Below are positions 4,682 to 21,749 of a stretch of 64,000 bases of DNA, in pieces. The notes beneath the pieces are model-generated. The model was not told where the DNA came from. It was given only the letters and a program-made list of their open reading frames with translations, and did no database searches. This DNA comes from an uncultured Actinomycetota bacterium (GTDB lineage Bacteria; Actinomycetota; Actinomycetes; Streptosporangiales; Streptosporangiaceae): assembly GCA_963743085.1 (NCBI GenBank), contig CAVUOU010000034.1, forward strand, positions 3,679-67,678, in the 5' to 3' direction. A program made the translations under genes and the position numbers. How positions within the stretch are numbered: position 1 is the first letter of the stretch; each line of letters starts with the position of its first letter.

Positions 4682-4729
4682 GGCTGCGGCTCGGGCGAGC
4701 GTTGAAAGCCGCGTCAGTGCCCGCCCGGA

Positions 4730-5260
4730 CTAGGCACATGCGCCTTCGAGCGTGTTGCCACCGATGTTCAGCACGACCGTTTTCGGGGTCACATCGCCGT
4801 ATGCGCAGACTGCCGGTCGGGTGTTAAGGGGTTCATATCCGCCGAAAAGTACGGTGTCCCGACCGAGATTGACAACCAGTCCGCTGTTCCACATACCTGC
4901 CGCGAGCAGTGCTGACCGCACGGCGGTGACCTGCAGCCGCTGCGACGGATCGAGCCGCTGAAGTGCCTGCCGGATTCGTGTGGTGACCGGGGCGGCCTCG
5001 GCGGCCACCGAGGCCGGCAGAGATTTGCGCTCGTTGAACATCTCGTTGGATTGCTGGTACTGCTGTACTCCGACCGACACACAAGGATTTGGCGGCGTGA
5101 CGTTCGCGGCCGCCTCGGGGCACAGCGGAGGAGGCGCGACCTTACTGCTAGCGGTGGCAGACGCAGACGCCGTAGTAGTACCAGGGACCGCGCACCCCGG
5201 CAGCAGGGCGATAAGGGAGATGCCGCACCCCGCCAGAAGCAGCCTGCCGCGCCCGTTCAT
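4730..5260 (-). CDS. putative lipoprotein
   Basis: MNGRGRLLLAGCGISLIALLPGCA is a signal peptide with a lipobox Cys. Ser/Ala/Pro-rich linker. No catalytic motif. Confidence 0.45.
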   Translation of the reverse strand: MNGRGRLLLAGCGISLIALLPGCAVPGTTTASASATASSKVAPPPLCPEAAANVTPPNPCVSVGVQQYQQSNEMFNERKSLPASVAAEAAPVTTRIRQALQRLDPSQRLQVTAVRSALLAAGMWNSGLVVNLGRDTVLFGGYEPLNTRPAVCAYGDVTPKTVVLNIGGNTLEGACA

Positions 5261-5412
5261 CTCGCCGCCTCCCCGTCGATGACACAAACGGTACATCCCG
5301 CCGAATCCAGGCGAAGCTGGTTCGGCGTCGGACGAGTCGTCGGCTGACTCGAAGGCTCGCTGAGGCGGCCTGCATCAGCGAGCTACCGGTTCCTCCTGGA
5401 CCTGACTGCCGA

Positions 5413-7173
5413 CTACGACCAGCCCGCGCCGACCTTGAACGTTATGGTCTGCGTGAGCAGGAGGCCGGTAATCGTCACCGTGTACGTGCCGTCAGCCATT
5501 CCGTCCGTGTCGATTTTGGCGGTGACCCTACCGTTGCCATCCGGTCCGGTCACCGCAAGCGATGAGTCCGTCCCGGGTCCGGCGATGGTGGCCGTCACGT
5601 CGTCCCAGGTCTGTCCGGGCACCGTTGAGTTCGGGTTAGCATACGGGCCGCTCGTCACCCCGTACTGGCCGGGAAGCGGCGGGTACACGCCGAATCCGTC
5701 CAGAATCGTCGTCCCGTTCGGGGTCCGGCCGGGGATGAACCCGTTCCCGGTGATCGTGATGGTATGACCGCTAACCGCCTCGCGGATGTTGGACTGCAAC
5801 CGGTTCAGCGCCTGCTGCGCTAGTCGGCGAGGCTGGGACGGTCCGTGCTGCCTGTCGATCTGCCTGACCAGCGCGGGCACGAAAGCCGGCGCGTAGATGG
5901 TGCCCCAGCCCGACGCGATGTCGTAGCCAGGCCCGGTCGAATAACCGGTGACGCCGTACGCGCTGTCCGTATAGCCGGCGGGCACATCGATGATGCCGGC
6001 CGCCGCGCCACGCGGTCCGATCGCCGCCAGAGCAGGATTGATCGTGCCCAGATCGGCACCGCGTAGCTGGGTGGCCAGCGCGAGGATGCCCGCGAAGGTG
6101 GGCGACGCCTGCGAGGTGCCGTCGGAAGCATCCATCGAGATGTCGGGGAAGGCCCGGCCGGTGACGTCACGCAATGCCGGGATGTCCCGCTGCCAGTACG
6201 GCTTCGGGTAGATGGTGGATATCCCGGCGCTCGCCGCGTCAGAGTCGTCGTTCGGCGCGGTCCACAGCCCATCAGGGGCGGTACGCCCGGACTCGGTGGC
6301 GAGGCCAGCGTTGGGGATGGTGCCACCAACGGCGGTTACCCATGGGCTGTCGACCGGGTGACCCGCGGTGAGACCGATCGTCGGCGTGCACTGGCCGGTG
6401 TCGCCGAGGACCGTTGGATTGGTCGGGCCGCAGTCGCCGGCCGCGAACGACACCGGAATGTTGTGCGCGGCGGCGTCAATGAATGCGGGATCCAGCGAAT
6501 GGATGGCCGCCTGCTGGGTGGCGGACGGATTCGTCGGGTCGTCGATGAAGTCGTTCTCTCCGTCAGCCAGGCTCACCGTGATGACGTCGGCCAGGTGCTT
6601 GTTCGCGATCATCTCAATGGCCTGGGCCACCTGTGGCCAGCCCTGCATGCCAACGGTTTCGGGCACCGGAGGATAGACGAAGATAATGTTCGCGTAGGGC
6701 GCCATCGAGTGGATGGCCTCCGCGTCGAGCTGGTCTTCGCCGGTGCTGCACTCGACCTGGCACGTGGTGGAGGGGTTGGATGGCGCCGGGTACGCCATCT
6801 CAGTGATGTTCGCCGGTGGCAAGTCCATCGCCGTGTCGTAAGACGCCATCGACGCGGCCAGGTCAGGGTCCGGATTGGTGACGATGTACGCCACGGTCAC
6901 GCCGGCGCCGTCGATCCCCTTCTTCCACAGGTCGTTAACGCCGTAGTCGATGATGTCTTCCTGCGCCGTTGGATCCGGATAGCGCAGCCTGAGCGACTTA
7001 CCGGCAGCGATCTTCGCCTCGATCGCGTTGTACGTCGCCGTCGTTGCCGCGATGCGTTGCGCGGGAGGCGGGACGCTCTGGCTCTGGCCTGATGATGTCA
7101 TGGCCATTGCTGACGCCGGACTGATGAACAGGAGGCTGGCCGCGCCAGCGATGAGAAGGGGCCTACGGACCAT
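5413..7173 (-). CDS. secreted S53-family (sedolisin/kumamolisin-like) serine peptidase with C-terminal beta-rich extension
   Basis: N-terminal signal peptide (LLIAGAASLLFISPASA). Pro-domain plus IDYGVNDLWKKGIDGAGVTVAYIV. Nucleophile motif SDGTSQASPTFAGILALATQ. 586 aa. Confidence 0.7.
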   Translation of the reverse strand: MVRRPLLIAGAASLLFISPASAMAMTSSGQSQSVPPPAQRIAATTATYNAIEAKIAAGKSLRLRYPDPTAQEDIIDYGVNDLWKKGIDGAGVTVAYIVTNPDPDLAASMASYDTAMDLPPANITEMAYPAPSNPSTTCQVECSTGEDQLDAEAIHSMAPYANIIFVYPPVPETVGMQGWPQVAQAIEMIANKHLADVITVSLADGENDFIDDPTNPSATQQAAIHSLDPAFIDAAAHNIPVSFAAGDCGPTNPTVLGDTGQCTPTIGLTAGHPVDSPWVTAVGGTIPNAGLATESGRTAPDGLWTAPNDDSDAASAGISTIYPKPYWQRDIPALRDVTGRAFPDISMDASDGTSQASPTFAGILALATQLRGADLGTINPALAAIGPRGAAAGIIDVPAGYTDSAYGVTGYSTGPGYDIASGWGTIYAPAFVPALVRQIDRQHGPSQPRRLAQQALNRLQSNIREAVSGHTITITGNGFIPGRTPNGTTILDGFGVYPPLPGQYGVTSGPYANPNSTVPGQTWDDVTATIAGPGTDSSLAVTGPDGNGRVTAKIDTDGMADGTYTVTITGLLLTQTITFKVGAGWS

Positions 7174-9608: not shown

Positions 9609-10607
9609 TCAAGCAGATACTCGAGTCGGGGGACGGCACGTATAGAGAATCCTGTTGGTTAGGTCGTCCAGGCCAGCTTCGATCTGTTCAGGCCCAGTCG
9701 TCAGGTCCAGCCACCATGAGTGAATCCGGATGTTCACGTTCCGGATCGTCGCCAAGAAGTCGGTTGGGAGCGACACGGATGCTGCCTTGAGGGCATAAAC
9801 AAGCGCCACGTCTTTAACGTCGTGCCCGATCGCGTAAGAGAGCATCTGGGCGTAGTGGTCGACATGCGTTGTTCCGTCACTCGCCAGGACGTACTTCGAG
9901 TCCAGGACGAAGGCGGCTGACGACCCTCGCTGCACGACGATGTCGGGTCTGATGATGAGGCGGTTCTCGACGTCCAGATGCCGCTGCTCTTGGCCGACCA
10001 CCCGGATGGTGTTGTCGGCTGCCTGAAGCCGCTTTCTGAGTCCCTCTTCGAGGAACTGCTCGAATAGATTGTTCATGTCGACCAGGAAAGAACAGTCGCG
10101 TGTGTTGCCGGCGGCTTCTGACAGGCTGAGTCGCCGCAGCAGGAGAGCGCTCAACCGGACGGCCGGAAGATAGCGACGGTCAAGTCGGGTCGGTTCCCAG
10201 GTTTCTGCCCAATGAAGGTCCGGCTCCACGGGTACGACTTCTTCGAGCAGAGTGAGTTGGAGTTGCAGGGTTCTGCGTACGGTTCCCGGTATGCCTGGCA
10301 GTCGCAGAACGCGGGAAAGTGCTGCTCTGATCAGCTGATTCAGCTTCGTATCGGCGGTGTAGTCGTCGTATCGGCAGCGGACCGGGACGGGTGAAAAAGG
10401 GTGGCGGAGTTGTTCCCTGAGGTCGATCCGGCCGCGGAGGGCGACGAGAGGCTCCTGGCGTTCGACGTAGCCATGCTGAACTCCTCGCCCAATGGCGCGG
10501 TCAACTGTGTGCGCTAGCAGCCTGGCAATGCCCGCGAAAAGGTCGTGATGGATCAGCAGATCCACCTCTTCGTTGCCCCACCAGTCTCGCGGCCGTTCGA
10601 TACCCAC
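9609..10607 (-). CDS. McrC-family PD-(D/E)xK nuclease subunit homolog (no adjacent McrB GTPase)
   Basis: Colinear with E. coli McrC: Y..E..L.ALRGRIDL, RYDDYTADTKLNQLIRAALSRVLRL, FLVDMNNLFEQFL, and the catalytic core IRPDIVV...FVLDSKYV (D..hhhhD.KY). The N-terminal about 30 residues of EcoMcrC are absent. Start is GTG. Confidence 0.6.
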   Translation of the reverse strand: MGIERPRDWWGNEEVDLLIHHDLFAGIARLLAHTVDRAIGRGVQHGYVERQEPLVALRGRIDLREQLRHPFSPVPVRCRYDDYTADTKLNQLIRAALSRVLRLPGIPGTVRRTLQLQLTLLEEVVPVEPDLHWAETWEPTRLDRRYLPAVRLSALLLRRLSLSEAAGNTRDCSFLVDMNNLFEQFLEEGLRKRLQAADNTIRVVGQEQRHLDVENRLIIRPDIVVQRGSSAAFVLDSKYVLASDGTTHVDHYAQMLSYAIGHDVKDVALVYALKAASVSLPTDFLATIRNVNIRIHSWWLDLTTGPEQIEAGLDDLTNRILYTCRPPTRVSA

Positions 10608-10801: not shown

Positions 10802-11353
10802 CTACAGGAGCCCGTACTGCCTCGCGTAGCCGGGAAATTCGGCACCCGTGCAGGGCAGCCTGTGTCCCGACGCTCGCAAGGCGTCGATTAGATTTCCGGC
10901 GGCGGGCTCCGAGAGTTTGCCATCGCGGCAGGCGCCCGCCAGCATCCAAATGGTCCCGTGTGCGTCTAGACCGTGGGCCCTAGCGACTCGTACCGCCCCT
11001 CGATCGTCGGTGATGGCAATCGCCGAACGTAGTTCGGCTGCCGCGAATACGCTGGCTTCCCCCAGGTCCCGCTCGCCCGAACCTAGGCGCTTTGTCCACA
11101 CTGCGAAATGCTTGATCTCGTCGAGAGTGTCGAGTTGGACGATCTTGAGCCAGTCAGCCGCAAGGACATCGTTCAGCGCTGGGTACGCGGTGACGCCTCG
11201 CCTGACTTCTTCTAGAACGACTCGGGTTGTCCAGCACTCCTTCCCGACCAGTAGGTCGCGAAGTACATCCAGTCGTTCCGTCCGAGCGAAATGGCTCAAG
11301 CACACGGCATCGAATACCCAAACCGAGCTGACGGCAGCCGCCTGCTCGGTCAT
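10802..11353 (-). CDS. PIN-like (DUF4411-like) putative nuclease, partner of the XRE-ImmA gene
   Basis: The start ATG overlaps the upstream gene stop (ATGA). VWVFDAVCLSHFARTERLDVLRDLL is a PIN-like first acidic motif. Size and pairing match DUF4411 proteins found next to COG2856 peptidases. Confidence 0.5.
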   Translation of the reverse strand: MTEQAAAVSSVWVFDAVCLSHFARTERLDVLRDLLVGKECWTTRVVLEEVRRGVTAYPALNDVLAADWLKIVQLDTLDEIKHFAVWTKRLGSGERDLGEASVFAAAELRSAIAITDDRGAVRVARAHGLDAHGTIWMLAGACRDGKLSEPAAGNLIDALRASGHRLPCTGAEFPGYARQYGLL

Positions 11354-12468
11354 GGTTCGATATCTTCCTCGGTACACGCAGGCAGGTCGGCTGCGGTGAT
11401 CTGCCCGTGCATGAGTTCAACGGCCCTCGATGCGGTGACGGCGCCCTTCTTCCAGGCTTCCATGACGGCATGGGCATAACCGGGAGGCACTCGTATAGCT
11501 TCGAGATCCGGTTGCGGCGCCCATCCCAAGGCTTCCATGAACTCGCCCCGCGTAGGAGAGACCTTTCCCCAGTCGCGGCGGGTCGGCCCGCTGAGGACTC
11601 CCGCGCGGGCGGCTTGCCTGATCGCCAGCGACCACGACGTCCGATAGTGGGCCGCGAGTCCGATGAGCTGATCCCGGTCCATGGTCTCTGACGCGCCGAG
11701 TTCAGCCGTCACGACCTGCGAGGGGAGTAGCAGTTCCGCTGCGAATGTGTCGAGCAACGCCTCTCGGTCTCCTCGCGACGTGTGGACACCGAGATCACTG
11801 GAGTATTCATCACCGACGACGAGGTGGCCGAGTTCGTGAGCAGCGGTGGCACGGCGACGCCCTGGATCTCCTCGGCGGCTGATGACCGCGACCGCCACGT
11901 CGCCATCGACCATCGATGCGCCTTCTCCTGGAACGTCGGTGACCAGGACGTACTGGCCAGCTCGTTCGCAAAGATCCACCATCGAGTCGATTGGCTTGGT
12001 GTGAACGCCCAGTTGCTCTCGAACCCCTAGCGCGACTTCGCGAGCAGCGGCCTCGGAGTCGACCGGCGTCTTGGCCCGCAAGAGAGGTCCTGGCCGCAGC
12101 GTACCCAGCTTGACCATCTGCTGCACGTCATGCAGCCATGCCACCAGAGTCAGGTCTAGACGCCCAGACTCTCGTGCTGCTTCGGTGTCCGCGTCTTCGG
12201 TCACGACACCAGAGCGGTGCGACAAGATGAGGGGCGTGGGCTGGAGCAATAGTTCAACTGGCACCTGAAGCGCAGACGACAGTCTGATCAGCTCCATGGC
12301 ATCTATGCGCCGGTGCCCGGACTCGATCTTGACGATCATTGTGCGGTCCAAGCCTGCCTTGCTGCCGAGCTCCTCTTGAGTAAGGCCTGCGGCCAGACGA
12401 GCGATGCGCATGCGCTCTCCGACATCTGCCCACTCAGCGTCGCCACTCATAGTTCGATAATCGCACAT
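11350..12468 (-). CDS. XRE-family HTH fused to ImmA/IrrE-family (COG2856) zinc metallopeptidase
   Basis: N-terminal HTH_3 (MRIARLAAGLTQEELGSKAGLDRTMIVKIESGHRRIDAMELIRLSSAL). HEXXH motif ATAAHELGHLVVGDEY. 372 aa. Confidence 0.7.
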   Translation of the reverse strand: MCDYRTMSGDAEWADVGERMRIARLAAGLTQEELGSKAGLDRTMIVKIESGHRRIDAMELIRLSSALQVPVELLLQPTPLILSHRSGVVTEDADTEAARESGRLDLTLVAWLHDVQQMVKLGTLRPGPLLRAKTPVDSEAAAREVALGVREQLGVHTKPIDSMVDLCERAGQYVLVTDVPGEGASMVDGDVAVAVISRRGDPGRRRATAAHELGHLVVGDEYSSDLGVHTSRGDREALLDTFAAELLLPSQVVTAELGASETMDRDQLIGLAAHYRTSWSLAIRQAARAGVLSGPTRRDWGKVSPTRGEFMEALGWAPQPDLEAIRVPPGYAHAVMEAWKKGAVTASRAVELMHGQITAADLPACTEEDIEP

Positions 12469-12609
12469 CCGCCTCGTGAGCGCGAACGAGACCCGCCGCC
12501 AGGGAGGCCTGCCTCGATAAGGAGGCCAGCGGGCCGACGGTCAGTCCGCGCCTGTTTCCGATTGCCTTGACTGCGCAATGTGTTCGATATTAGAAACGAA
12601 TAGTATGAG

Positions 12610-12645
12610 AGGACCGTCGAGGTGCGGGAACACCTCGACGGTCCT
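12610..12645. other. perfect 15-bp-stem hairpin (aggaccgtcgaggtg / cgggaa / cacctcgacggtcct)
   Basis: Read directly from the sequence. Lies between the island and the repeat remnant. Confidence 0.6.
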
Positions 12646-12689
12646 AGTCATCAACTCCAACACAACTGGAGGACGACATGGGACCCATC

Positions 12690-12900
12690 AAATCATGAGC
12701 GATCGAGAACTCGTCGATGGTGTCGCGTCGGTTAGCCACGCCATCCCTGGCGTCCCCAACGTCACCAGGCTGTGGATGGGTGTCCGGGGAATGGAGAAGC
12801 GTTACGTCTTCTCCGGGAAGCCCTACCAGCGCTTCTTGTAAAAGGAGTTCGTGAAGGCGTGGAAACGATCGGGTCGGTAGCTCAGCTTTGGGCGGCCAGG
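12690..12900 (+). repeat. degenerate second copy of the 3' module of gene 25974..27464 (about 85% nt identity to 27030..27225)
   Basis: Encodes ELVDGVASVSHAIPGVPNVTRLWMGVRGMEKRYVFSGKPYQRFL*KEFVKAWKRSGR. The second copy encodes ELVEGVASVSHSIPGVPNVTGLWMGVREVEKRYVFAGKPFQRFLYKEFVKAWKRSGR. This copy carries an internal stop and no upstream coding context. Confidence 0.6.
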
Positions 12901-13738
12901 TGGCGTTCGAGGATGGTGCGGCTCTCGGTCGGGTCCGCGGCCACAGTGGTCTCGATGTGAGTCCAGATGTCATACAGCGCGTCACCAGAGGCTAGTCGGA
13001 CGCCAATGACTGCGGGATAGGCGACGCCAATCCGATCGTTAGTGCCTGCGAAAGACAAAATCTCGAAGAGGTGGCCGCGGCTCTCGAAGAAAGCGGCGTC
13101 CTTGGGGATGATGCACACTGTGGCATGCGGGCTGTGGCTTAGTGCGAGCAGGTGACGGAGCTGCCCGGCCATGATGTCTGGACGATTCAACCGCTCGAAA
13201 GCGGTCTCGTCGATGATCACGTCGAGAAGCCGGGTAGCCGCGGCCGGGTGATGCGTCTGGCGATGGTAGAGCAGGTCCCATTCCTGATCGACGTCGCAGT
13301 CGAGGAAGACATACGGCGCGATCTCGCGGAAGTAGCCTTCGGTCTGGACCAGGTAGGGGATCAGCAGAAGGCCGTGGACCTGGGCGAGGGTGGCCTCTGC
13401 TTCGAGCAAGAGCACGTCCCTGGTGTCTGCGGTCATCCGGGCGTGTGCGCGGCGAGCCAGGGTGGCGGGGAAGCCACGCGCCGAGCCATGTCGATAATCA
13501 TGTCGGAGGCTCCGGCTTCCCGTACGCCGTACTCGACAAGGATGCGTGCGACTTCCTCGGAGCTCGCTACCCCGAATCCGGTCTCTAGGCGAACCAGCCA
13601 GTCAGACCCGCGGCCCAGTCGCGCTGCGGCCTCGTCGTAGGTCAGGCACGCGACTTCCCGGGCCGTCTCGAGCATCGATCCCAGAGTGCCCGGACGGTTC
13701 GCGGTGCTGCTCGACGCGAACTCGGCCGGTGAGACCAC
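12882..13738 (-). pseudogene. XRE-HTH / DUF5753 (Scr1-like) regulator, frameshifted between the HTH and DUF5753 parts
   Basis: 13433..13738 encodes an XRE-like HTH. 12882..13436 encodes the DUF5753-like C-terminal domain in a different frame. The DUF397 partner gene expected downstream is absent. Confidence 0.55.
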
Positions 13739-13753: not shown

Positions 13754-14547
13754 TCACCTGGCGCGGGCGAATAGTGCCCCCTGCGGCGTTGCCCGGTCTG
13801 GCTGGAGGATTTCGCCTCGTTCGATCGCGCCGGTCCGAAGCAGAACAGTGTAGGCGATCTCGGCGGAGTGCCTTGCTGTCCACTTGGTCATCGGTAAGCC
13901 ATCGCGGAAACCGTAGCCGAACTTCTCTAGCCAGTCGGTGGCGAACTGAAGCGGGTCCTCGGGCAGTTGCGCGGCCACCGCGGTGAGCAACAGTACGGTT
14001 GCCTGCAACTCCAGCCGTTGTGCACGGCGGGGTGGCACGTTTGCCGCTAGGTCCCACCAGAGCTTGACCGGGTCGTTGCGGACCGCGCGTCCGCTCGGGG
14101 TAGCGAGCAGGATGCCGCGTTCCTTGCGCAGTAGACCGGTTTTCATTGCAGACTCACGCAGTTCCAGAACGGGGAGAGTCTGGTTCTCCCGGTTGTGCTT
14201 GCCGATCCACTCGTCCCAGAGCCCGAGTTCGGCAACGGTGGCCTCGACGACCTTGGGCGGAAGGAACCCAGCAGCGGTCAGCTTTATCCCGTCGCTGACC
14301 TGGTCCAGCAGCCACGTGTACGGCGCACCATTCGGGTCGCGACCTGCGCGTCAACGAGGACCGGGTCTCCCAGTTTGGCTAGGAGCATCGACCTCAGCAG
14401 CTCGATCTGGAGGAGCGGGTCTTGCAGCACCGACACCACATCGTTGACCTGTTCGGCGAGAGTAGCTCGGAAACTTGGGTAGCCGAGGTTTTCCCAGGAC
14501 TTGTCCATGCTGGTCACCGTACCGGCGTGCGGGCTCTCCGTGAGCAT
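13754..14547 (-). pseudogene. hypothetical protein (about 264 aa) with a frameshift near 14300
   Basis: ORF 14284..14547 continues in the -1 frame into ORF 13754..14146 (..APYTWLLDQVSDGIKLTAAGFLPPKVVEATVAELGLWDEWIGKHNRENQTLPVLELRESAMKTGLLRK..). No family recognised. Confidence 0.35.
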
Positions 14548-14572: not shown

Positions 14573-15310
14573 TCACACCGCCTTGCTGGCGCCGTTCGCA
14601 TCGGGCACTAGAACGCGCATCTGCAAGGCTGCCACGAGGTCTTGGCGCTCATAGCTGGCGAAGACGTTGGTGAGCTGCCCGAGTAGCAGCGTCTTCTCCG
14701 CGGGACTAAGCTCCGCGAGGAACTGCGCGACGAGACCGGGAACTACGTCCTTGTCAGCAGCGCTTGCACTGGACTCCGCGATGCCCTGCACGACCGTCTC
14801 GAATTGGTTCTCCTTGTCTGCTAGGGCGAGAAGCTTGCCCGGGTCACCATCGAACCACCACAGCCGGGCGGTGGCGGTATCGGCAAGGAACACGTCGCGC
14901 AGCTTCACCAGCCGGTCCCGCTGAGCCTCGAGTTCCGCGTCGGCGAGCATGGCCGCGCGATCGATGGAAGCCCGTCGTTCCGCATATTCAAGGTCATCGG
15001 CGGTTACGGTCAGCGTCACGTGTGCGGCCATCAGCGTGGCGCCAGTGCCTGGTATTTCCTGGGGCACCGCGAGACGATGGTTGACTTCGTCCTGGGCGGC
15101 GCTTGCGTCAAGCACCGAGTACTGGCGGGTGACCTTATTCGCGTCCTCAACCAGGTAGCGGAATACCGCCGCCCCGTCCTCCGGGGACGACACCCAGCGG
15201 GCAGACACCGTGGCGGTGAACCACGCTGCGGTCAGCAGGCGACTGGCCAGCCGGTATGGTCCCGCGTTGGCGTTGCAGCCAGGATCCGCGTAAGCACGCT
15301 GCCATCTCAT
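14573..15310 (-). CDS. hypothetical protein, co-operonic with the NTPase (4-nt overlap)
   Basis: Coding-like 245-aa ORF. ATGA-type overlap with 15307..17217. Confidence 0.4.
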   Translation of the reverse strand: MRWQRAYADPGCNANAGPYRLASRLLTAAWFTATVSARWVSSPEDGAAVFRYLVEDANKVTRQYSVLDASAAQDEVNHRLAVPQEIPGTGATLMAAHVTLTVTADDLEYAERRASIDRAAMLADAELEAQRDRLVKLRDVFLADTATARLWWFDGDPGKLLALADKENQFETVVQGIAESSASAADKDVVPGLVAQFLAELSPAEKTLLLGQLTNVFASYERQDLVAALQMRVLVPDANGASKAV

Positions 15311-17217
15311 ACGTTGGCCTCCGCGATCGCGGTATAAATTTTAGCCGGCGAGAGCCCGGGTGTGAGCGGGTCGCGAGCCGCTACCTTCCGCATGAGCTCG
15401 TCGTTGATGGTCTCACGGGGAATCGGGGCTGGATCGGTGTCCGCTTTCGCCCATTGCCAGGTCGCATTCGACAGAATGCCGATGTCATGGCTGCTATGGC
15501 AGGCGTCGGCCAGTGTGGTGGTCACAACCTCGTGAGATACCTTTCCCTGGGCGGCCGCCTCCAGCCATTCGACGCAGGCATCCCGCGCGGCGGCGACGTA
15601 GTCAGGGTCATGGAACGCGGCGCGCCAGCCCTCGGCGAGCAACTCGCGCCGGTCACGGCTGGAGAGCAGATCAGCGTCAGGAACGGCCAGCGCGAGAAAC
15701 ACCCGGATGCCGGTCGTGCGCAGGGGCTCGGGTTGCTCGATCCACCAGATTGTCTCCCGCAGCGTCTGGGTCCGCAGATGAGGCTCGTCAGCGAGCGACT
15801 GCAATGCCATCGTGACGCGCTCATACACGCCGGTGTCGCCGTTCCGGACGAGGTGACGCAGCCGCGTCATCGCGTTCCGCGGGAAGCTCTTGCCGAGCGG
15901 GCCGCCGCAGACGTCGGCGATGGTGAGCTTGAGGCTCTGCGTGGTTCCCGAGCGGGTCGCCCAACGGTACATGGCCTGGCGGATGCTGCTTCCGATAGTC
16001 GCGCTTACGCCCGCCTCTGTTAGTGCGTCAGCAGCTAGCTCCCGGCTTGCCGACTGCTCCGCCCATGTGCCAGCCGCATGGGTAATGAGTGCGGCGTCAC
16101 CGTGCCGGATGGCGAGATCGATCAGGCTGTAGGCGGCCTTGGCACCCGCTGGGTCGCGGAGTGATGTGGGCAGGTCAATGAGCCAGCGCTCCAGGTCGCC
16201 TCGCAAATGCAGACGATCGGTCCACACGTGTTCAAGCACAGAGGCGGCGTAGGCGGGGCGGGGAAGCTTTATCGTACCGTCGATGATCACCGCGTCGATC
16301 TCGGCGATGAGCTTGCCGGCACCGTCCCCGACGAGTCCTCCGCCGGGCGGCCGCTCGAATTTCACCCGGTCGATGAGCTGATCGGCAGCTCTGAAAACCG
16401 CTCCCGCGGCCGCGCCATCCAGAGAGGCAGCCGAGAGTAGCAGCGCTCGCTCGTATCCGTCGGTGTGCTTGCCGAACCAGACGCTCAGCTCATCGGACCA
16501 GTTTCGATATGCCGAGATAGCCTCGTGAAGGGGGTCGTCGCTATGTGCGGTGATCGCGTCGTTCCCAAGCTTTGCCAAACGTGCGGCGTCCGCCGGGCTC
16601 GCATCGTTTAGCAGATCCAGGACCTGGGGTCGCTGTGACCAGTCGTCAGCGACGGCCGGTGCGAGGTGGGTTCTCAGCACGTCGGCCGGATTCGGCGAGA
16701 TGATGGGGACAGAACGCATACGCGGCCCAAGCAGATTCCGGGTGGCAGGGGTCGTCGTCACCACGAGGTAGGCGCCGACCTTGGCGAGCTGATGGGCATA
16801 GCGAGGGAGGAGTTCGCTGAGCTCAGGCATTCCTCGCCCCATCTGATCATCGATGGCCACGATGTAGCCGTCGCCGCTCTTCGCGGGCAGCTCGCGCCGG
16901 TCGTCACCGGGGTCGAGGTCAACCCGATGGGGGATCGCGCCAAGCTCGGTGATCACGGCAACCGCAGTGACCAGTCGGCCAGACCCGGGCTGGCCGGTCA
17001 GCACAACGGCGTTCGCGGATCTTAGGGCATCAACCGCTTGGTCGGCCGATGCGGTACGTACATATACGGTCCGCAGTCGTGTGAGCTCTTCCAGGTCCAG
17101 CGCGTGCGCTTCGACCAGCTCCCGGACCCGCTGGACGATGTTTATGGTGTCGGCATTCAGTTGCTGCCCGTCGCCAGTGTTCTGATAGAACCTGGCAGGC
17201 TCGTCGATATCCGTCAC
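15307..17217 (-). CDS. STAND/NB-ARC-like P-loop NTPase with degenerate Walker A and C-terminal helical repeats
   Basis: Walker A is degenerate (VVLTGQPGSGRLVTA, K to R and T to L). Walker B GYIVAIDD about 40 aa later. hhhhTTT sensor-like motif YLVVTTTPATR. N-terminus is ARFYQNTGDGQQLNADTINIV. 636 aa. Confidence 0.55.
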   Translation of the reverse strand: MTDIDEPARFYQNTGDGQQLNADTINIVQRVRELVEAHALDLEELTRLRTVYVRTASADQAVDALRSANAVVLTGQPGSGRLVTAVAVITELGAIPHRVDLDPGDDRRELPAKSGDGYIVAIDDQMGRGMPELSELLPRYAHQLAKVGAYLVVTTTPATRNLLGPRMRSVPIISPNPADVLRTHLAPAVADDWSQRPQVLDLLNDASPADAARLAKLGNDAITAHSDDPLHEAISAYRNWSDELSVWFGKHTDGYERALLLSAASLDGAAAGAVFRAADQLIDRVKFERPPGGGLVGDGAGKLIAEIDAVIIDGTIKLPRPAYAASVLEHVWTDRLHLRGDLERWLIDLPTSLRDPAGAKAAYSLIDLAIRHGDAALITHAAGTWAEQSASRELAADALTEAGVSATIGSSIRQAMYRWATRSGTTQSLKLTIADVCGGPLGKSFPRNAMTRLRHLVRNGDTGVYERVTMALQSLADEPHLRTQTLRETIWWIEQPEPLRTTGIRVFLALAVPDADLLSSRDRRELLAEGWRAAFHDPDYVAAARDACVEWLEAAAQGKVSHEVVTTTLADACHSSHDIGILSNATWQWAKADTDPAPIPRETINDELMRKVAARDPLTPGLSPAKIYTAIAEANV

Positions 17218-17990
17218 GATGACCGGCCCCCGTATGTGATTGGTGCGGAGATGGTGTCGGCGTTGATCTGCTGGCCAGCTCCGGTGTTCTGGTAGAACCG
17301 GCCCGCCTTCGGCGGTTCACTGGAGTCGACGAGGGTGGCTGTCGCCGCCTGGGTCTCGGGGGCTGACGATCGCGATGGGCGCGGCACGTAGATCCAGGCA
17401 GGTTCGGCGAAGTCCTTGCCCGGCACCTCGGCTGTCACCTGATCGAACCGATCGGGATGCAACACTGATGTGTAGCCGCCACGGACGACATCATCGAAGA
17501 CGCGCTGCGAAACGATCGCGGCGAGCAGCGTTACATCGTGGTTGGAGCGGTTGAGGGCATCGCGCAGGGCGGTGGAGTCCAGAAGGCGGCATGCGACGTT
17601 CGTTGGAGTGCCAATGCGATCCCGCAGTTCGTCGCCTGCGTCTGGTACTGGGCCGATGTTGACGGACACTCGCAGCCGGAGCCGCAGCGCACGGTCGAGT
17701 GCCCGCAATTCCTCATCGGTCTCGGCCAGAACATCATGGAGCGTGTCGAGGACAGGGTGTAGCAGAAACGGCACGTCGGTCGGCATAGTTCCGAACAGGT
17801 ACCCGTCGCCGGTCCCCTGGGGGAAACGGCGTTGCTCCCAGATGCCCGGGAGCTGGCACCGCTCGAACGTCACCTTGAGCACGCGCTGAATGGTGGCGCT
17901 CAGGTCGGGCTGGCGGGCACTCGGGTTGGCGGTGAACCGTACGGTATCGACGGCGAAGATGCCTCGATACGGGGGAAGTGGTTCTGACAT
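17214..17990 (-). CDS. class III nucleotidyl (adenylyl/guanylyl) cyclase-like domain protein
   Basis: Metal-binding motifs GIFAVDTVRFTA and QGTGDGYLF. LRLRVSVNIGPVPDAG and GTPTNVACRLLDS carry the transition-state N/R arrangement of PF00211-type cyclases. The C-terminus ends RFYQNTGAGQQINADTI. Confidence 0.55.
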   Translation of the reverse strand: MSEPLPPYRGIFAVDTVRFTANPSARQPDLSATIQRVLKVTFERCQLPGIWEQRRFPQGTGDGYLFGTMPTDVPFLLHPVLDTLHDVLAETDEELRALDRALRLRLRVSVNIGPVPDAGDELRDRIGTPTNVACRLLDSTALRDALNRSNHDVTLLAAIVSQRVFDDVVRGGYTSVLHPDRFDQVTAEVPGKDFAEPAWIYVPRPSRSSAPETQAATATLVDSSEPPKAGRFYQNTGAGQQINADTISAPITYGGRSS

Positions 17991-18694
17991 ACCACGAAGG
18001 TGCCGCATCGCGGCGAACCCTTCTGTCCAGGAATAGACACTAACGCTAGCCCATCCGCGACGGCCGCGAGGCCGAGGGCGTCGGCTATCCAGATCCTGCG
18101 GCGGCCGGTTCGCACCAGTGCGTGGCGGCGAAGCCAGGCGAGCTCGCTGGCCACAGCGGATCGTGACATTCCCGCGGTCGTCGCGAGGTCGGACTGGGTG
18201 AGAACGCAGCAGCCACCCGGGGATAGGCGCAACAGCGAGCGTGCGAGCCGACGACGGGCAGGCAGCCCGGTCAGCTCGGCACGGATCTCCTCGCTCTCCC
18301 GTAGCCGCGCGATCACATGGCAGAAAACGAGGTCGCCAAGGGTGAAGTCACTAACGATCTTCCTGAAGCGTGCGTCCGGCAGGATGTACGTCACGCATGG
18401 GGAAAGAGCTGTGATGGTAGCGGAGCGCCGTCGATGGTCCAGATACGAGAGATCCCCGATGAGCTCGCCTCGTCCCCGAACGGCGAGCACGAGTTCGTGC
18501 CCGTCGGGTTCCAGGTGCGTGACCTTGACCAGGCCATGGGTCAGCGCGAGTACGAAACGCCCTTCGTCCCCCTGCCGTACGAGGATCTCGCCAGTGGCGT
18601 ACTGCCGGGGTGATCCGTTCACCAGGGTTGCGTGCCATGCTTGCAGCGGCATGAGGGCACCGAGTCCCTGGAGTCCGTCGTGCTCCACATTCAT
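17900..18694 (-). CDS. Crp/Fnr-family transcriptional regulator (cNMP-binding domain + HTH)
   Basis: cNMP-binding beta-roll GEILVRQGDEGRFVLALTHGLVKV...GRGELIGDLSYLD. HTH LTQSDLATTAGMSRSAVASELAWLRRHALV. An unusual about 50-aa C-terminal tail overlaps the cyclase gene start. Confidence 0.65.
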   Translation of the reverse strand: MNVEHDGLQGLGALMPLQAWHATLVNGSPRQYATGEILVRQGDEGRFVLALTHGLVKVTHLEPDGHELVLAVRGRGELIGDLSYLDHRRRSATITALSPCVTYILPDARFRKIVSDFTLGDLVFCHVIARLRESEEIRAELTGLPARRRLARSLLRLSPGGCCVLTQSDLATTAGMSRSAVASELAWLRRHALVRTGRRRIWIADALGLAAVADGLALVSIPGQKGSPRCGTFVVCQNHFPRIEASSPSIPYGSPPTRVPASPT

Positions 18695-18900
18695 ACGACA
18701 ACAGACCATCTAGCCATCGGCAAGCCCCGCTTTGGGAACGTTTGCTCGTCGAGTGCGTTCGCCATCAACTCCCGGATCGCGAACGGCACCGTCCAGTGCT
18801 CCAGGGCCTTCTCGATGTTCAGAACCCGTAGTGAGACGCATGACCGTGGGACAAGGTGTGCAGAAGACTACATAGGTGCACGGCATTCGTTACCGCACTG

Positions 18901-18923
18901 CTAGCCGTCACGTGACCGGCTAG
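18901..18923. promoter_or_regulatory. composite palindrome ctagccg-tcacgtgac-cggctag in the Crp upstream / divergent promoter region
   Basis: 7-bp arms flank a palindromic core, read from the sequence. A candidate operator. Confidence 0.3.
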
Positions 18924-20234: not shown

Positions 20235-21749
20235 TCAGGCGGGGTACTGGCGGGGCTGGCTGGTGTAGTGCCGCCCGCTGGGGGTGGTCCATTGCCGGAA
20301 GCCGGGGGCGATCTGCTTGACTTGCCAGCTGGGCTTCTGCTTGATCTGGTGGTCGTGTTCGTCGACCATCGAGCAATTACACATACAGGTCCACCCACCC
20401 GATTCGAACGGCTGAGCGTGCTCGTAGTCGCATTTTCGAGCGGGTCGGGCGCAGCCGGGACGGGCGCAGGTTCCGTCCCTAACCTCGGTCAGGTGCCGGA
20501 GCAATTCGCTGGGATCGTGCTGCTCGGTGCGGTAGGTGTGGTCGCAGTCGAAGATGGCGACCGGGTACAGCGTGAACTCCCTGGCCTGGTCTTGCGGGAA
20601 GGCGATGCGCATGGTCCCGGCGTTGTCCGCTTTCGCCCGGTTGCTCCGCCGGTTCGCGGGTGGACATCCGTGCGAGGTGACCCAGCCCTGGTCGTTCACG
20701 AGGGAGAGATGCCATTCGGTCTGGTCCCCGGCGCGGGCCGCCGCTGCGGCGAGCTGGCGGACCATGTCCGGGTCGATGGCGCCGAGCCCGGCCGCTTCGC
20801 CCGGATTGTCGGCCTGGCCGAGCACGGTCAAAAGCGGCAGGATCCACTCCGGCGCGGTCAGGTGCACCTGCCGCGGTGCCGCCGCGGTGCTTTCCGTGGA
20901 GGTGTCGGTGCCGAGGGGGTTGCGGCCGGTGAGCTTATCGGCGAAGGCCCGGGCACGGAGCTTGTCCATTCCTCCGGTCATCCCGGACTTCTTGTAGGCT
21001 TCGGCGCGTTCCTGGACCGCGGCCTCGGCGTCCATCGCGTCGGCTGGGTTGAGGCCGGAGGCCTGGATCGCCATCGTGCCTTCCGGCTCCCGCCAGGACG
21101 CGACCTTCGCGTTCCGCTCCGATTCCGTTCGGCGCTTTTCCGCCGCCTCCGGGTCGGCGGCGATGCTGGCCCCCTCGGTCAGCTTGCGCAGCTCACCGGG
21201 GGTCTTGCCCTTGAACGAGCCCCCGGCCTGCATCAGGGCGAGTTTTTCGGCGTTCCACGCGGCCTCGTTGTCCAGCGGCCGGGTGACTTCCGCCATGATC
21301 GAGGCCTTCACGTAGTCGACGTCGCCGGTCTCCAGCGCGGCGGCGGTGGCGGTCAGCCGGGTGGCCAGCGTGACCCCCAGGCTCACCAGCTTGTCGGTCG
21401 CTGGCTTGGACATGCCCAGCGCCAGCGCCGCTTCCTCGCTGACGCTTTCGTCCCATCCGGCCGGTACTTCCGGTGCGATGTCGGCCGGTCCGGTGACAGT
21501 GCCGAGCGCCGGGATGCCCCGGCGCCGCACCAGCTCGGTCACCGCGGCCAGCTTCTGTGAGCAGGCCTAGGACTCGACCGCCGCCCACCGGCCCAGCGCC
21601 CCGGTGAGCTGGTCATCGTCCAGCCCTCGGTACCGGCGGTCCTGGCCCGCCACTTGCTCCAGGATCCCCGCCAGCTTCGCTGACGGGCGGGCCATGTCCA
21701 AGGTCTCGCCCTGGGAGAAGCCGCTGTAGTCTGCCATGCTCCCGTTCAC
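20235..21749 (-). pseudogene. DUF222 / REP13E12-family HNH endonuclease interrupted by an in-frame TAG
   Basis: Complete HNH core (RDGTCARPGCARPARKCDYEHAQPFESGGWTCMCNCSMVDEHDHQIKQKPSW). ORFs 21567..21749 and 20235..21542 are in the same frame, separated by a TAG at 21567-21569. Confidence 0.6.

Follow-up and report, generated by a model that had tools for sequence, protein, structure and literature searches.

A candidate NLR-type signalling module of actinomycetes with matching tags on a cyclase-like protein and a STAND-like NTPase

Why do actinomycetes encode a Crp-type regulator, a nucleotide cyclase-like protein and a STAND-like nucleoside triphosphatase (NTPase) in tightly packed genes, and how could such a cyclase be switched on? 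The question is raised by a stretch of 64,000 nucleotides (nt) from an uncultured actinomycete (contig CAVUOU010000034.1), referred to here as the window. Positions are those of the window throughout, and cyclase residues are counted from the start at 17990. Four closely packed open reading frames (ORFs) lie on the minus strand and encode, in order of reading, a Crp-like regulator, the cyclase-like protein, the NTPase and an SPFH-like protein (Table 1). The Crp ORF overlaps the cyclase gene by 91 nt, the GTG start of the NTPase gene overlaps the cyclase stop by 4 nt, and the start of the SPFH-like gene overlaps the NTPase stop by 4 nt. With modest confidence, we favour reading the four genes as one conserved NLR-type (conflict or immune) signalling module of actinomycetes, in which paired tags would switch the cyclase and Crp or the Pycsar effector PycTM would read its cyclic mononucleotide product.

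The original prediction for this locus, made from the letters alone, had named three minus-strand genes within 15307..18709. All three are real, and the cyclase and the NTPase are separate overlapping genes, as it had stated. It had also considered a signalling or conflict role plausible, and this judgement gains weight because relatives of the module carry PycTM. A short tag that is shared by the cyclase and the NTPase, and that links the two proteins, was overlooked in it.

Gene order and paired tags in related loci

The module was compared with 45 related genome loci from Streptosporangiales, Streptomyces, Pseudonocardiales, Actinoplanes and Stackebrandtia. According to hidden Markov models that were partly built from the same 45 loci, the NTPase follows the cyclase in 42 of them, Crp lies upstream on the same strand in 35 (and divergently in 2 more), and the SPFH-like gene is next in line in 34, with all four genes present in 28. 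Gene junctions in these loci overlap by ~4 nt. The gene order is not due to chance, because dozens of genomes spread over several actinomycete orders repeat it. In the present analysis the family was found in actinomycete genomes only, mostly in filamentous genera.

Could the two central genes nevertheless be one gene in two pieces? Such a split, whether of a mycobacterial regulator with adenylyl cyclase, NB-ARC, TPR and LuxR parts or by a sequencing frameshift, is extremely improbable. Fused relatives do exist at three loci (L026 6974..8893, L029 6854..8506 and L033 6980..8767) and join the cyclase to an Arg-type P-loop (GGRRTTA) and a C-terminal FHA domain. However, the two-gene form, with its stop/start overlap and a tag on each gene, is found in more than 35 independent genomes, which refutes an artefactual frameshift in a single fused gene. 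FHA is the last domain of the fused relatives, a LuxR helix-turn-helix (HTH) is absent from them, and matches to PF00211, NB-ARC, TPR or LuxR are lacking. The mycobacterial fusion of an adenylyl cyclase with NB-ARC and LuxR parts, to which the original prediction had compared the module, is not its closest analogue, given the missing PF00211 match, an nSTAND3 match that stays under its cut-off and the FHA ends of the fused relatives. In L026 and L029 the fused gene is followed by a membrane protein with a weak MotA/ExbB-like match. Locus L016 resembles a frameshifted copy.

The cyclase and the NTPase of the window carry matching tags of 18 residues, rich in Gly, Asn and Gln. The cyclase tail closes with ...GRFYQNTGAGQQINADTIS... 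(17247..17300) and the NTPase starts with MTDIDEPARFYQNTGDGQQLNADTIN (17140..17193); 15 of the 18 residues are identical, and 8 of these 15 differ in codon. Each cyclase C-terminus was compared with each NTPase N-terminus across the 45 loci. A tag pair is present in nearly every locus, matching within the pair and differing between lineages, for example GGSSHRASGHGTVNVVGGNQY / GGDSHRASHGGTVNVIGGNQY in L002 and AGRDIDQSRRHTTVRGDQYKA / AGRDLDQSTHYVTVSGDQYQA in L039. On average, cognate pairs scored 54.2 and non-cognate pairs 31.5 (39 pairs; permutation p <= 1e-4). In 14 of the 39 pairs the cognate partner ranked first; otherwise, close relatives sharing the motif type often score equally. Over 27 pairs, 136 of 303 identical residues (45%) are encoded by different codons, so selection acts on the tag peptide. 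The same codon differences rule out recent DNA duplication or gene conversion as the source of the match.

The tags are enriched in Gly (2.3 times) and Asn (4.4 times), with Gln, Val and Ile also raised and Pro, Leu and Lys strongly reduced. They are 18-30 amino acids (aa) long and diverse among loci, and the cyclase tail is predicted to be disordered by AlphaFold2 (AF2). Streptomyces cyclases carry 2-3 pseudo-repeats of the tag vs a single copy in the NTPase. In Lentzea, the cyclase tails hold two motif types (..GGVVQAGSIG.. and ..NTVAGRDI..), and the second alone matches the NTPase. BASS motifs, which are known from pairs of bacterial effectors and NLR receptors, have been reported to be biased to G/N/Q/V/I and poor in P/K/L, and pseudo-repeats have been reported for BASS1/6 and HET-s (bioRxiv 10.1101/2020.01.06.895854). 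The genes of the module are adjacent and collinear, and the motif lies C-terminally in the effector and close to the N-terminus in the receptor, where the criterion allows 10-150 aa; relatives have the same layout. They fit the published pair criteria on gene arrangement, overlap and length of the N-terminal extension (bioRxiv 10.1101/2020.01.06.895854). From composition, length, position and disordered context we infer, by analogy, that the tags are BASS-type and amyloid-like.

The tag could instead be a short linear adaptor that is not amyloid, forming a defined hetero- or homo-oligomeric beta-zipper, or with both copies docking onto a shared partner such as the ARM/HEAT region or the SPFH-like protein. 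It would then be functionally equivalent to the folded effector-associated domains (EADs) of Aravind-type conflict systems, and the wiring of sensor to cyclase would be unchanged. Links between cyclases and STAND proteins through matching EADs or Death-like domains have been documented, the tags are short (18-30 aa) and diverse, and the module has a conserved fourth protein, the SPFH-like one, all of which speak for such an adaptor. Composition, length, position, disorder, pseudo-repeats on the effector side and gene arrangement, on the other hand, fit BASS/HET-s-type motifs and not folded EADs, and we regard a non-amyloid adaptor as somewhat unlikely.

Table 1. Features of the module in the window
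Feature	Position	Strand	Remarks
Crp/Fnr-type regulator	17900..18709	-	269 aa; PF00027 and PF13545
cNMP-binding domain of the Crp-like protein	18350..18607	-	PF00027
Phosphate-binding cassette GEL..RRSAT	18407..18469	-	in the Crp-like gene
Crp-type winged HTH	18062..18250	-	PF13545
Divergent class III nucleotide cyclase-like protein	17214..17990	-	258 aa; AF2 fold, Foldseek and conserved columns
Cyclase folded domain	~17376..17990	-	AF2 residues 1-205
Metal-binding Asp codons	17946..17948 and 17805..17807	-	in the cyclase gene
Asn and Arg codons of GxxxNxxxR	17598..17600 and 17586..17588	-	in the cyclase gene
Disordered linker from cyclase domain to C-terminal tag	17301..17375	-	AF2 pLDDT <50 at residues 211-241
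Effector-side tag RFYQNTGAGQQINADTIS (BASS-like motif)	17247..17300	-	cyclase residues 231-248 of 258; match to NTPase tag
STAND-like P-loop protein	15307..17217	-	636 aa; nSTAND3 under cut-off, Walker motifs, ARM/HEAT-like half
Receptor-side tag RFYQNTGDGQQLNADTIN	17140..17193	-	NTPase residues 9-26; match to cyclase tag
Walker A GQPGSGRL	16972..16995	-	residues 75-82; Arg where Lys is expected
Walker B-like YIVAIDD	16846..16866	-	hydrophobic strand ending in acidic residues
ARM/HEAT-like region (example)	15787..15873	-	helical C-terminal half
SPFH/Band-7-like protein	14573..15310	-	245 aa; conserved fourth module gene

The four proteins of the module

The longest cyclase ORF (17214..18008) encodes 264 aa; judging by homologues, translation really begins with the ATG at 17990, and the protein has 258 aa. 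This protein has no family match in Pfam, NCBIfam or PADLOC at E <= 0.1, and a sequence search of the PDB returned nothing relevant. At profile level, the sole PDB match of the family is Ma1120, a marginal alignment at E 0.36. The names 'class 3 adenylate cyclase' and 'Guanylate cyclase domain-containing' are given to homologues by some sources. With 117 homologues as input, AF2 produced a model with a predicted local distance difference test score (pLDDT) of 85.6, in which residues 1-205 are folded and residues 211-258 disordered; the linker region is gapped and variable across the family alignment. Foldseek searches of this model against the PDB gave 88 matches at E <= 0.001, and every one of the best 50 of the 88 is a class III adenylyl, guanylyl or uridylyl cyclase. 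The top structures include CyaC (1wc1, E 3.6e-7, TM-score 0.53/0.68), Cya2, Ma1120 and cyclic UMP (cUMP) synthases, the last at ranks 9 and 47 only among the best 50 of 88. As modelled, the middle gene encodes a class III cyclase fold, with the predicted beta-alpha-beta-beta-alpha-beta palm of the cyclase homology domain.

Both catalytic signatures noted in the original prediction, D..D and N/R, are present. The metal-binding D15 and G61-D62, together with R100, R107, G113 and R135, are invariant in all 117 homologues, and the transition-state Asn, N131, is kept in 101 of them. The transition-state Asn and Arg were mapped by motif and by the order of secondary structure rather than by residue-level structural alignment. 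The GxxxNxxxR motif of the window reads GTPTNVACRL. At the second substrate-specifying position the family has Asp or Glu, and the canonical pairs (Lys/Asp for ATP, Glu/Cys-Ser for GTP) are not found. The substrate of the cyclase cannot be predicted, because the base-specifying position is Gln. Neither the window cyclase nor four homologues matched PADLOC PycC.

Alternatively, the cyclase-like protein could be a catalytically dead nucleotide-binding or scaffold subunit, and Crp could simply put the operon under ordinary cyclic AMP (cAMP) control, with no private messenger. The missing PF00211 match and the non-canonical Gln at the specificity residue would fit this, inactive cyclase domains have been reported in some conflict systems, and Crp-family regulators commonly sense global cAMP. 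Against it, both metal-binding Asp, the Gly-Asp hairpin and both Arg are invariant in the 117 homologues, with Asn in 86%. Crp and the cyclic mononucleotide-activated PycTM also replace one another or stand together at one locus, a pattern that speaks for a dedicated messenger. A dead cyclase seems quite improbable.

The NTPase is less easily placed. Its sole Pfam signal in the window is nSTAND3 (PF20720), at 24.6 bits vs a cut-off of 27.2, and the match reaches no further along the profile than its first third to half. This profile recurs as the best match in 5/25 and in 5/10 homologues without ever reaching its cut-off, and it is still the best Pfam match, again under cut-off, when approached through distant homologues. 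We call the protein 'STAND-like' and leave formal STAND membership open, because nSTAND3 stays under its cut-off and the Walker A is non-canonical. The tripartite STAND layout is present, with an N-terminal tag, a P-loop core and a helical, ARM/HEAT-like C-terminal half; the latter is indicated by an ARM-repeat match (4rzp, E 4e-7) and by HEAT_2 and ARM_5 matches in 3-4 homologues. No region of the NTPase is notably more variable than the rest.

The Walker A Lys is replaced in the window (GSGRL), as had been noted in the original prediction, and the replacement extends to the whole family. When the family profile GtGRrttA is aligned to GSGKTTTA of Ffh, the Arg falls on the Lys. Arg occupies this position in 25/25 syntenic homologues and in 117 of 135 full-length representatives, with Lys in 4; the 135 are the full-length subset of 343 NTPase family representatives among 1.84 billion proteins. 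The Walker B-like strand has the expected character, and the family consensus is GYLLDL. That the NTPase has no LuxR HTH also stands, and Pfam finds no TPR or other HTH in the window protein either. The profile searches proposed with the original prediction thus give a cNMP_binding match in the Crp-like protein and none for PF00211, NB-ARC or NACHT.

A Crp/Fnr-type cyclic mononucleotide (cNMP)-binding regulator had been placed directly upstream of the cyclase, and the two profile matches agree. PF00027 (70.9 bits, E 9e-20) and HTH_Crp_2, PF13545 (37.2 bits, E 3e-9), both exceed their Pfam cut-offs. The cNMP-binding beta-barrel with the cassette Arg and the C-terminal Crp-type winged HTH are both present, and the cassette Arg and Ala are invariant among 14 syntenic Crp homologues. 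The Crp ORF of the window has ~45 extra C-terminal residues (17900..18061 region); all homologues end earlier. On identical metagenome contigs, the Crp call is replaced by a 59-aa ORF on the opposite strand (L046 9396..9575). The ~300-nt region upstream of the Crp-like gene contains a near-perfect palindrome, CTAGCCGGTCACGTGACGGCTAG, at 18901..18923, and L001 has TGGTCAATATGACCA, a GGTCA-N3-TGACC site, at the equivalent place.

Two further proteins, and a block of five genes, had been proposed in the original prediction. The first of the two is conserved, and the block holds for four genes. In the protein encoded at 14573..15310, a long coiled-coil helix comes after an SPFH alpha/beta domain. 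The protein has no Pfam match, PF01145 included, and its sequence shows no hydrophobic N-terminal segment and no evident membrane anchor. In Lentzea loci (L030, L032, L034-L036; ~4700..6300), a second SPFH-like paralogue and an FkbM-type methyltransferase gene lie upstream of Crp. The supposed fifth gene, 13754..14547 on the minus strand, is not a single ORF, since it is broken by six in-frame stop codons. It resolves into 14284..14547 (87 aa) and 13754..14146 (130 aa), which lie 137 nt apart. The 130-aa ORF has weak, sub-threshold matches to Dpy-30 and RIIa motifs; apart from these, no family match was obtained for either ORF, and both are without relatives in all 45 loci. Being broken by stops and without relatives, 13754..14547 is rejected as a member of the module; it may be what is left of a decayed gene, or else cargo specific to the lineage.

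PycTM, proposed mechanism and surroundings

What would the module do with a cyclic mononucleotide? The output had been described as unknown in the original prediction. The module does look like a signalling module, as was then proposed, and the candidates for its output are now down to a Crp-type regulator in the window and PycTM in relatives. PycTM was found in 18 of the 45 loci (PF18967 over cut-off; PADLOC PycTM E 5e-16), and in L005, L007 and L008 it occupies the position of Crp directly upstream of the cyclase. In RefSeq, a Streptomyces linear plasmid lists, in order, a 'Pycsar system effector family protein', a 'Crp/Fnr family transcriptional regulator' and three 'hypothetical proteins'.

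Several loci have further genes of interest nearby. In Nonomuraea, a CHAT-domain protein (L007 3567..5675; PADLOC BovA of Borvo, E 1e-97) is encoded just upstream of PycTM, cyclase, NTPase and SPFH genes, and this BovA match beside the module suggests a defence-island context. Locus L050 (NZ_CP108260.1 181283..187178) lies on a linear mobilizable plasmid, and its NTPase is split by an IS701 transposase. Three closely similar Streptomyces plasmid records, with identical match statistics, have the module adjoining genes for an N-6 DNA methylase and endonuclease VII.

A module for developmental or physiological signalling, or for programmed cell death, in filamentous actinomycetes has to be considered as well; there the Crp-like factor would reprogramme transcription upon internal stress. 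That the family was found here in actinomycetes only, chiefly in filamentous genera, would suit such a role, as would the report of BASS pairs nearly exclusively in multicellular bacteria. The window encodes a transcription factor and no killing effector, and the module was not found on viral contigs. PycTM effectors in 18 of 45 loci argue against it, as do the defence or mobile genes that adjoin several loci and the Streptomyces copy on a mobilizable linear plasmid, disrupted by an insertion sequence. Developmental and antiphage roles are not mutually exclusive. We consider a developmental role unlikely as the main explanation.

If the module is a conflict or immune system, it could work as follows. 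The STAND-like protein would be the sensor; its ARM/HEAT-like C-terminal half would bind the trigger and the protein would oligomerise. The oligomers would cluster the ~20-residue N-terminal tags into a cross-beta (amyloid-like) nucleus, which would template the matching tag on the flexible cyclase linker and pack cyclase domains side by side. Forced proximity may then turn on cyclic mononucleotide synthesis. Class III cyclases build their active sites across the dimer interface, and for this reason proximity would activate the cyclase. In the window, the Crp-like cNMP-binding transcription factor would read the messenger and produce a transcriptional response. In many relatives, PycTM, added to Crp or replacing it, would cause Pycsar-style membrane damage or abortive infection. 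The SPFH-like protein would be a conserved accessory, and one can only speculate that it acts as an oligomeric scaffold or a regulator. A more specific version is tentative and, in our view, falls a little short of probable: an Arg-Walker-A sensor, probably non-hydrolysing, would assemble and switch on a cryptic class III cyclase by prion-like templating of a short, co-evolving tag, turning amyloid assembly into a diffusible signal, and the cNMP would be read by Crp for transcriptional, non-suicidal immunity or by PycTM for abortive infection.

Several points weigh against this interpretation. No PycTM-like ORF is present in the window at E <= 10, and relatives were not found on viral contigs. 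PF00211 matches 0 of the 117 cyclase family members, even at E <= 1, and 16 of the 117 lack the transition-state Asn. The base-specifying position, three residues before the glycine of GD, is Gln in 105 of 117, not Lys or Glu. The non-canonical Gln and the Asn missing in 16 of 117 leave cyclase activity and substrate unproven. The sensor has no NACHT or NB-ARC match in Pfam, for the window protein and its homologues alike, and nSTAND3 never reaches its cut-off. With Arg for Lys in its Walker A, the sensor may not cycle nucleotide as NLRs do. The Crp gene has an odd C-terminal extension and is omitted by gene callers on metagenome contigs, probably because of this extension and the 91-nt overlap with the cyclase gene. 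No conserved Crp operator was found, as the half-site pattern occurs in 9/36 Crp upstream regions vs 53/215 control segments, without enrichment. Finally, the defence context is anecdotal: McrBC/HNH, PIN and XRE-M78 genes here, BovA in L007 and the methylase in L050.

If the more specific version holds, amyloid signalling would here be seen for the first time to feed into a second-messenger pathway. The module would also explain concretely, within this family, how Pycsar-like cyclases are activated, namely by a dedicated sensor and tag-driven proximity. The module would unite NLR-type sensing, amyloid-tag signal transfer and Pycsar-type cyclic-mononucleotide immunity, which have mostly been studied apart. 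The natural alternation of Crp and PycTM as readers would allow non-lethal and abortive outputs to be compared, and the family-wide change from Lys to Arg in Walker A bears on the need for NTP hydrolysis in STAND sensors. Defence surveys based on domains would miss the module, because Pfam misses the cyclase and the NTPase stays under its cut-off; three of the four module proteins are 'hypothetical' in RefSeq.

The neighbours of the module in the window include XRE-M78, PIN-like, HTH_31/DUF5753, McrBC/HNH and DUF222 genes. On the minus strand are a PIN-like protein at 10802..11377 (PIN 21.7 bits, under its cut-off), a protein with an XRE-HTH and an M78 peptidase domain (ImmA/IrrE-like) at 11350..12468, and an HTH_31 / DUF5753 pair at 13433..13738 and 12882..13436. 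These genes (10802..13738) are toxin-antitoxin or regulator-type cargo, as is usual in variable islands. Also on the minus strand, a 332-aa ORF at 9609..10607 is McrC-like by eye only, and short McrBC and HNH_2 genes are annotated nearby on an identical contig. On the other side, the module is flanked by a DUF222 protein at 20235..21542 (minus strand). The G+C content is 0.62-0.66 over ~8-20 kb including the module, vs up to 0.70 elsewhere in the window. The low G+C and the neighbouring genes would be compatible with a variable island, and a search around the module found no tRNA as an island border.

Comparison with known systems

BASS-cyclase pairs and STAND-cyclase fusions were known before and have been mentioned only in passing. 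Full-text searches of the literature found no description of the four- or five-gene module, of a co-varying tag on a Pycsar-linked cyclase or of the Arg-Walker-A family.

A close parallel is offered by the BASS pairs. Dyrka et al. (2020) described Bell/NLR pairs with BASS1-10, in which NLR effector domains are both two-component and fused, and rare non-Bell effectors include 'a guanylate cyclase domain', given in one sentence (bioRxiv 10.1101/2020.01.06.895854). Like these pairs, the module has an effector gene that is immediately upstream, collinear and overlapping by very little, with a ~20-25-aa tag located C-terminally on the effector and N-terminally on the receptor. In composition, the tags are likewise G/N/Q/V/I-rich and P/K/L-poor, with pseudo-repeats on the effector side, and all-in-one fusions and filamentous actinomycete hosts are shared as well. 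Unlike the Bell pore-former, however, the effector of the module is predicted to be an enzyme that makes a diffusible messenger. Pfam assigns its receptor to neither NACHT nor NB-ARC; this protein resembles nSTAND3, carries Arg in its Walker A and has ARM/HEAT-like repeats. To the pair, the module adds the messenger receptors Crp and PycTM and the SPFH-like protein. The published BASS pipeline would miss this family, because it is anchored on NACHT and NB-ARC models (bioRxiv 10.1101/2020.01.06.895854).

In Bab/Agp of E. coli, it has been shown experimentally that amyloid tags transmit activation during phage infection (bioRxiv 10.1101/2024.11.07.622273). The two systems are alike in having adjacent genes with an N-terminal and a C-terminal tag and a sensor that is not a classical NLR. 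Bab is a small membrane-targeting killer and Agp a TPR/GreAB-C/PIN protein, and they differ from the module in having no nucleotide messenger or transcription factor.

Pycsar, reportedly described by Tal et al. in 2021, is said to place a class III-fold cyclase beside a cNMP-activated effector. To our knowledge, it is not known how the Pycsar cyclase senses infection. Relatives of the module resemble Pycsar and Pucsar in this pairing of a class III-fold cyclase with a cNMP effector, PycTM (PF18967). In contrast to Pycsar, the module cyclases match neither PADLOC PycC nor Pfam, and the reader in the window is a Crp-type factor, with no PycTM. The module is also larger, with four or five genes including a dedicated sensor and the SPFH-like protein.

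In the conflict systems described by Aravind and co-workers, cNMP cyclases occur as effectors that are fused or EAD-linked to STAND, VMAP and iSTAND cores; cyclases are coupled to Band-7 proteins, and in some actinobacteria CRP-like factors are encoded close to AP-ATPase systems (Kaur et al. 2020, PMC7159879; Kaur et al. 2021, PMC8195603). Cyclases fused to NACHT or AP-ATPase form 'immune clade 1' (bioRxiv 10.64898/2026.08.12.744502), and degenerate Walker motifs have already been noted in Avs8 (PMC13581612). As in the module, a cNMP cyclase is the signal-generating effector of an NTPase-centred system. These systems differ in using direct fusions or folded adaptors on NACHT, AP-ATPase, iSTAND and VMAP cores, whereas the module would use a short, co-varying tag that is amyloid-like by analogy. 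Its NTPase is nSTAND3-like with an Arg Walker A, and its Band-7-like protein is a separate gene.

The mycobacterial Rv0386/Rv1358-type proteins combine a canonical PF00211 cyclase and a LuxR HTH output in one polypeptide. They share with the module a class III cyclase and a STAND-type P-loop in an actinobacterium. By description, the module differs from them in its separate genes, in a cyclase that lies outside Pfam and in the absence of LuxR, and its DNA-binding output is a separate Crp-type cNMP receptor.

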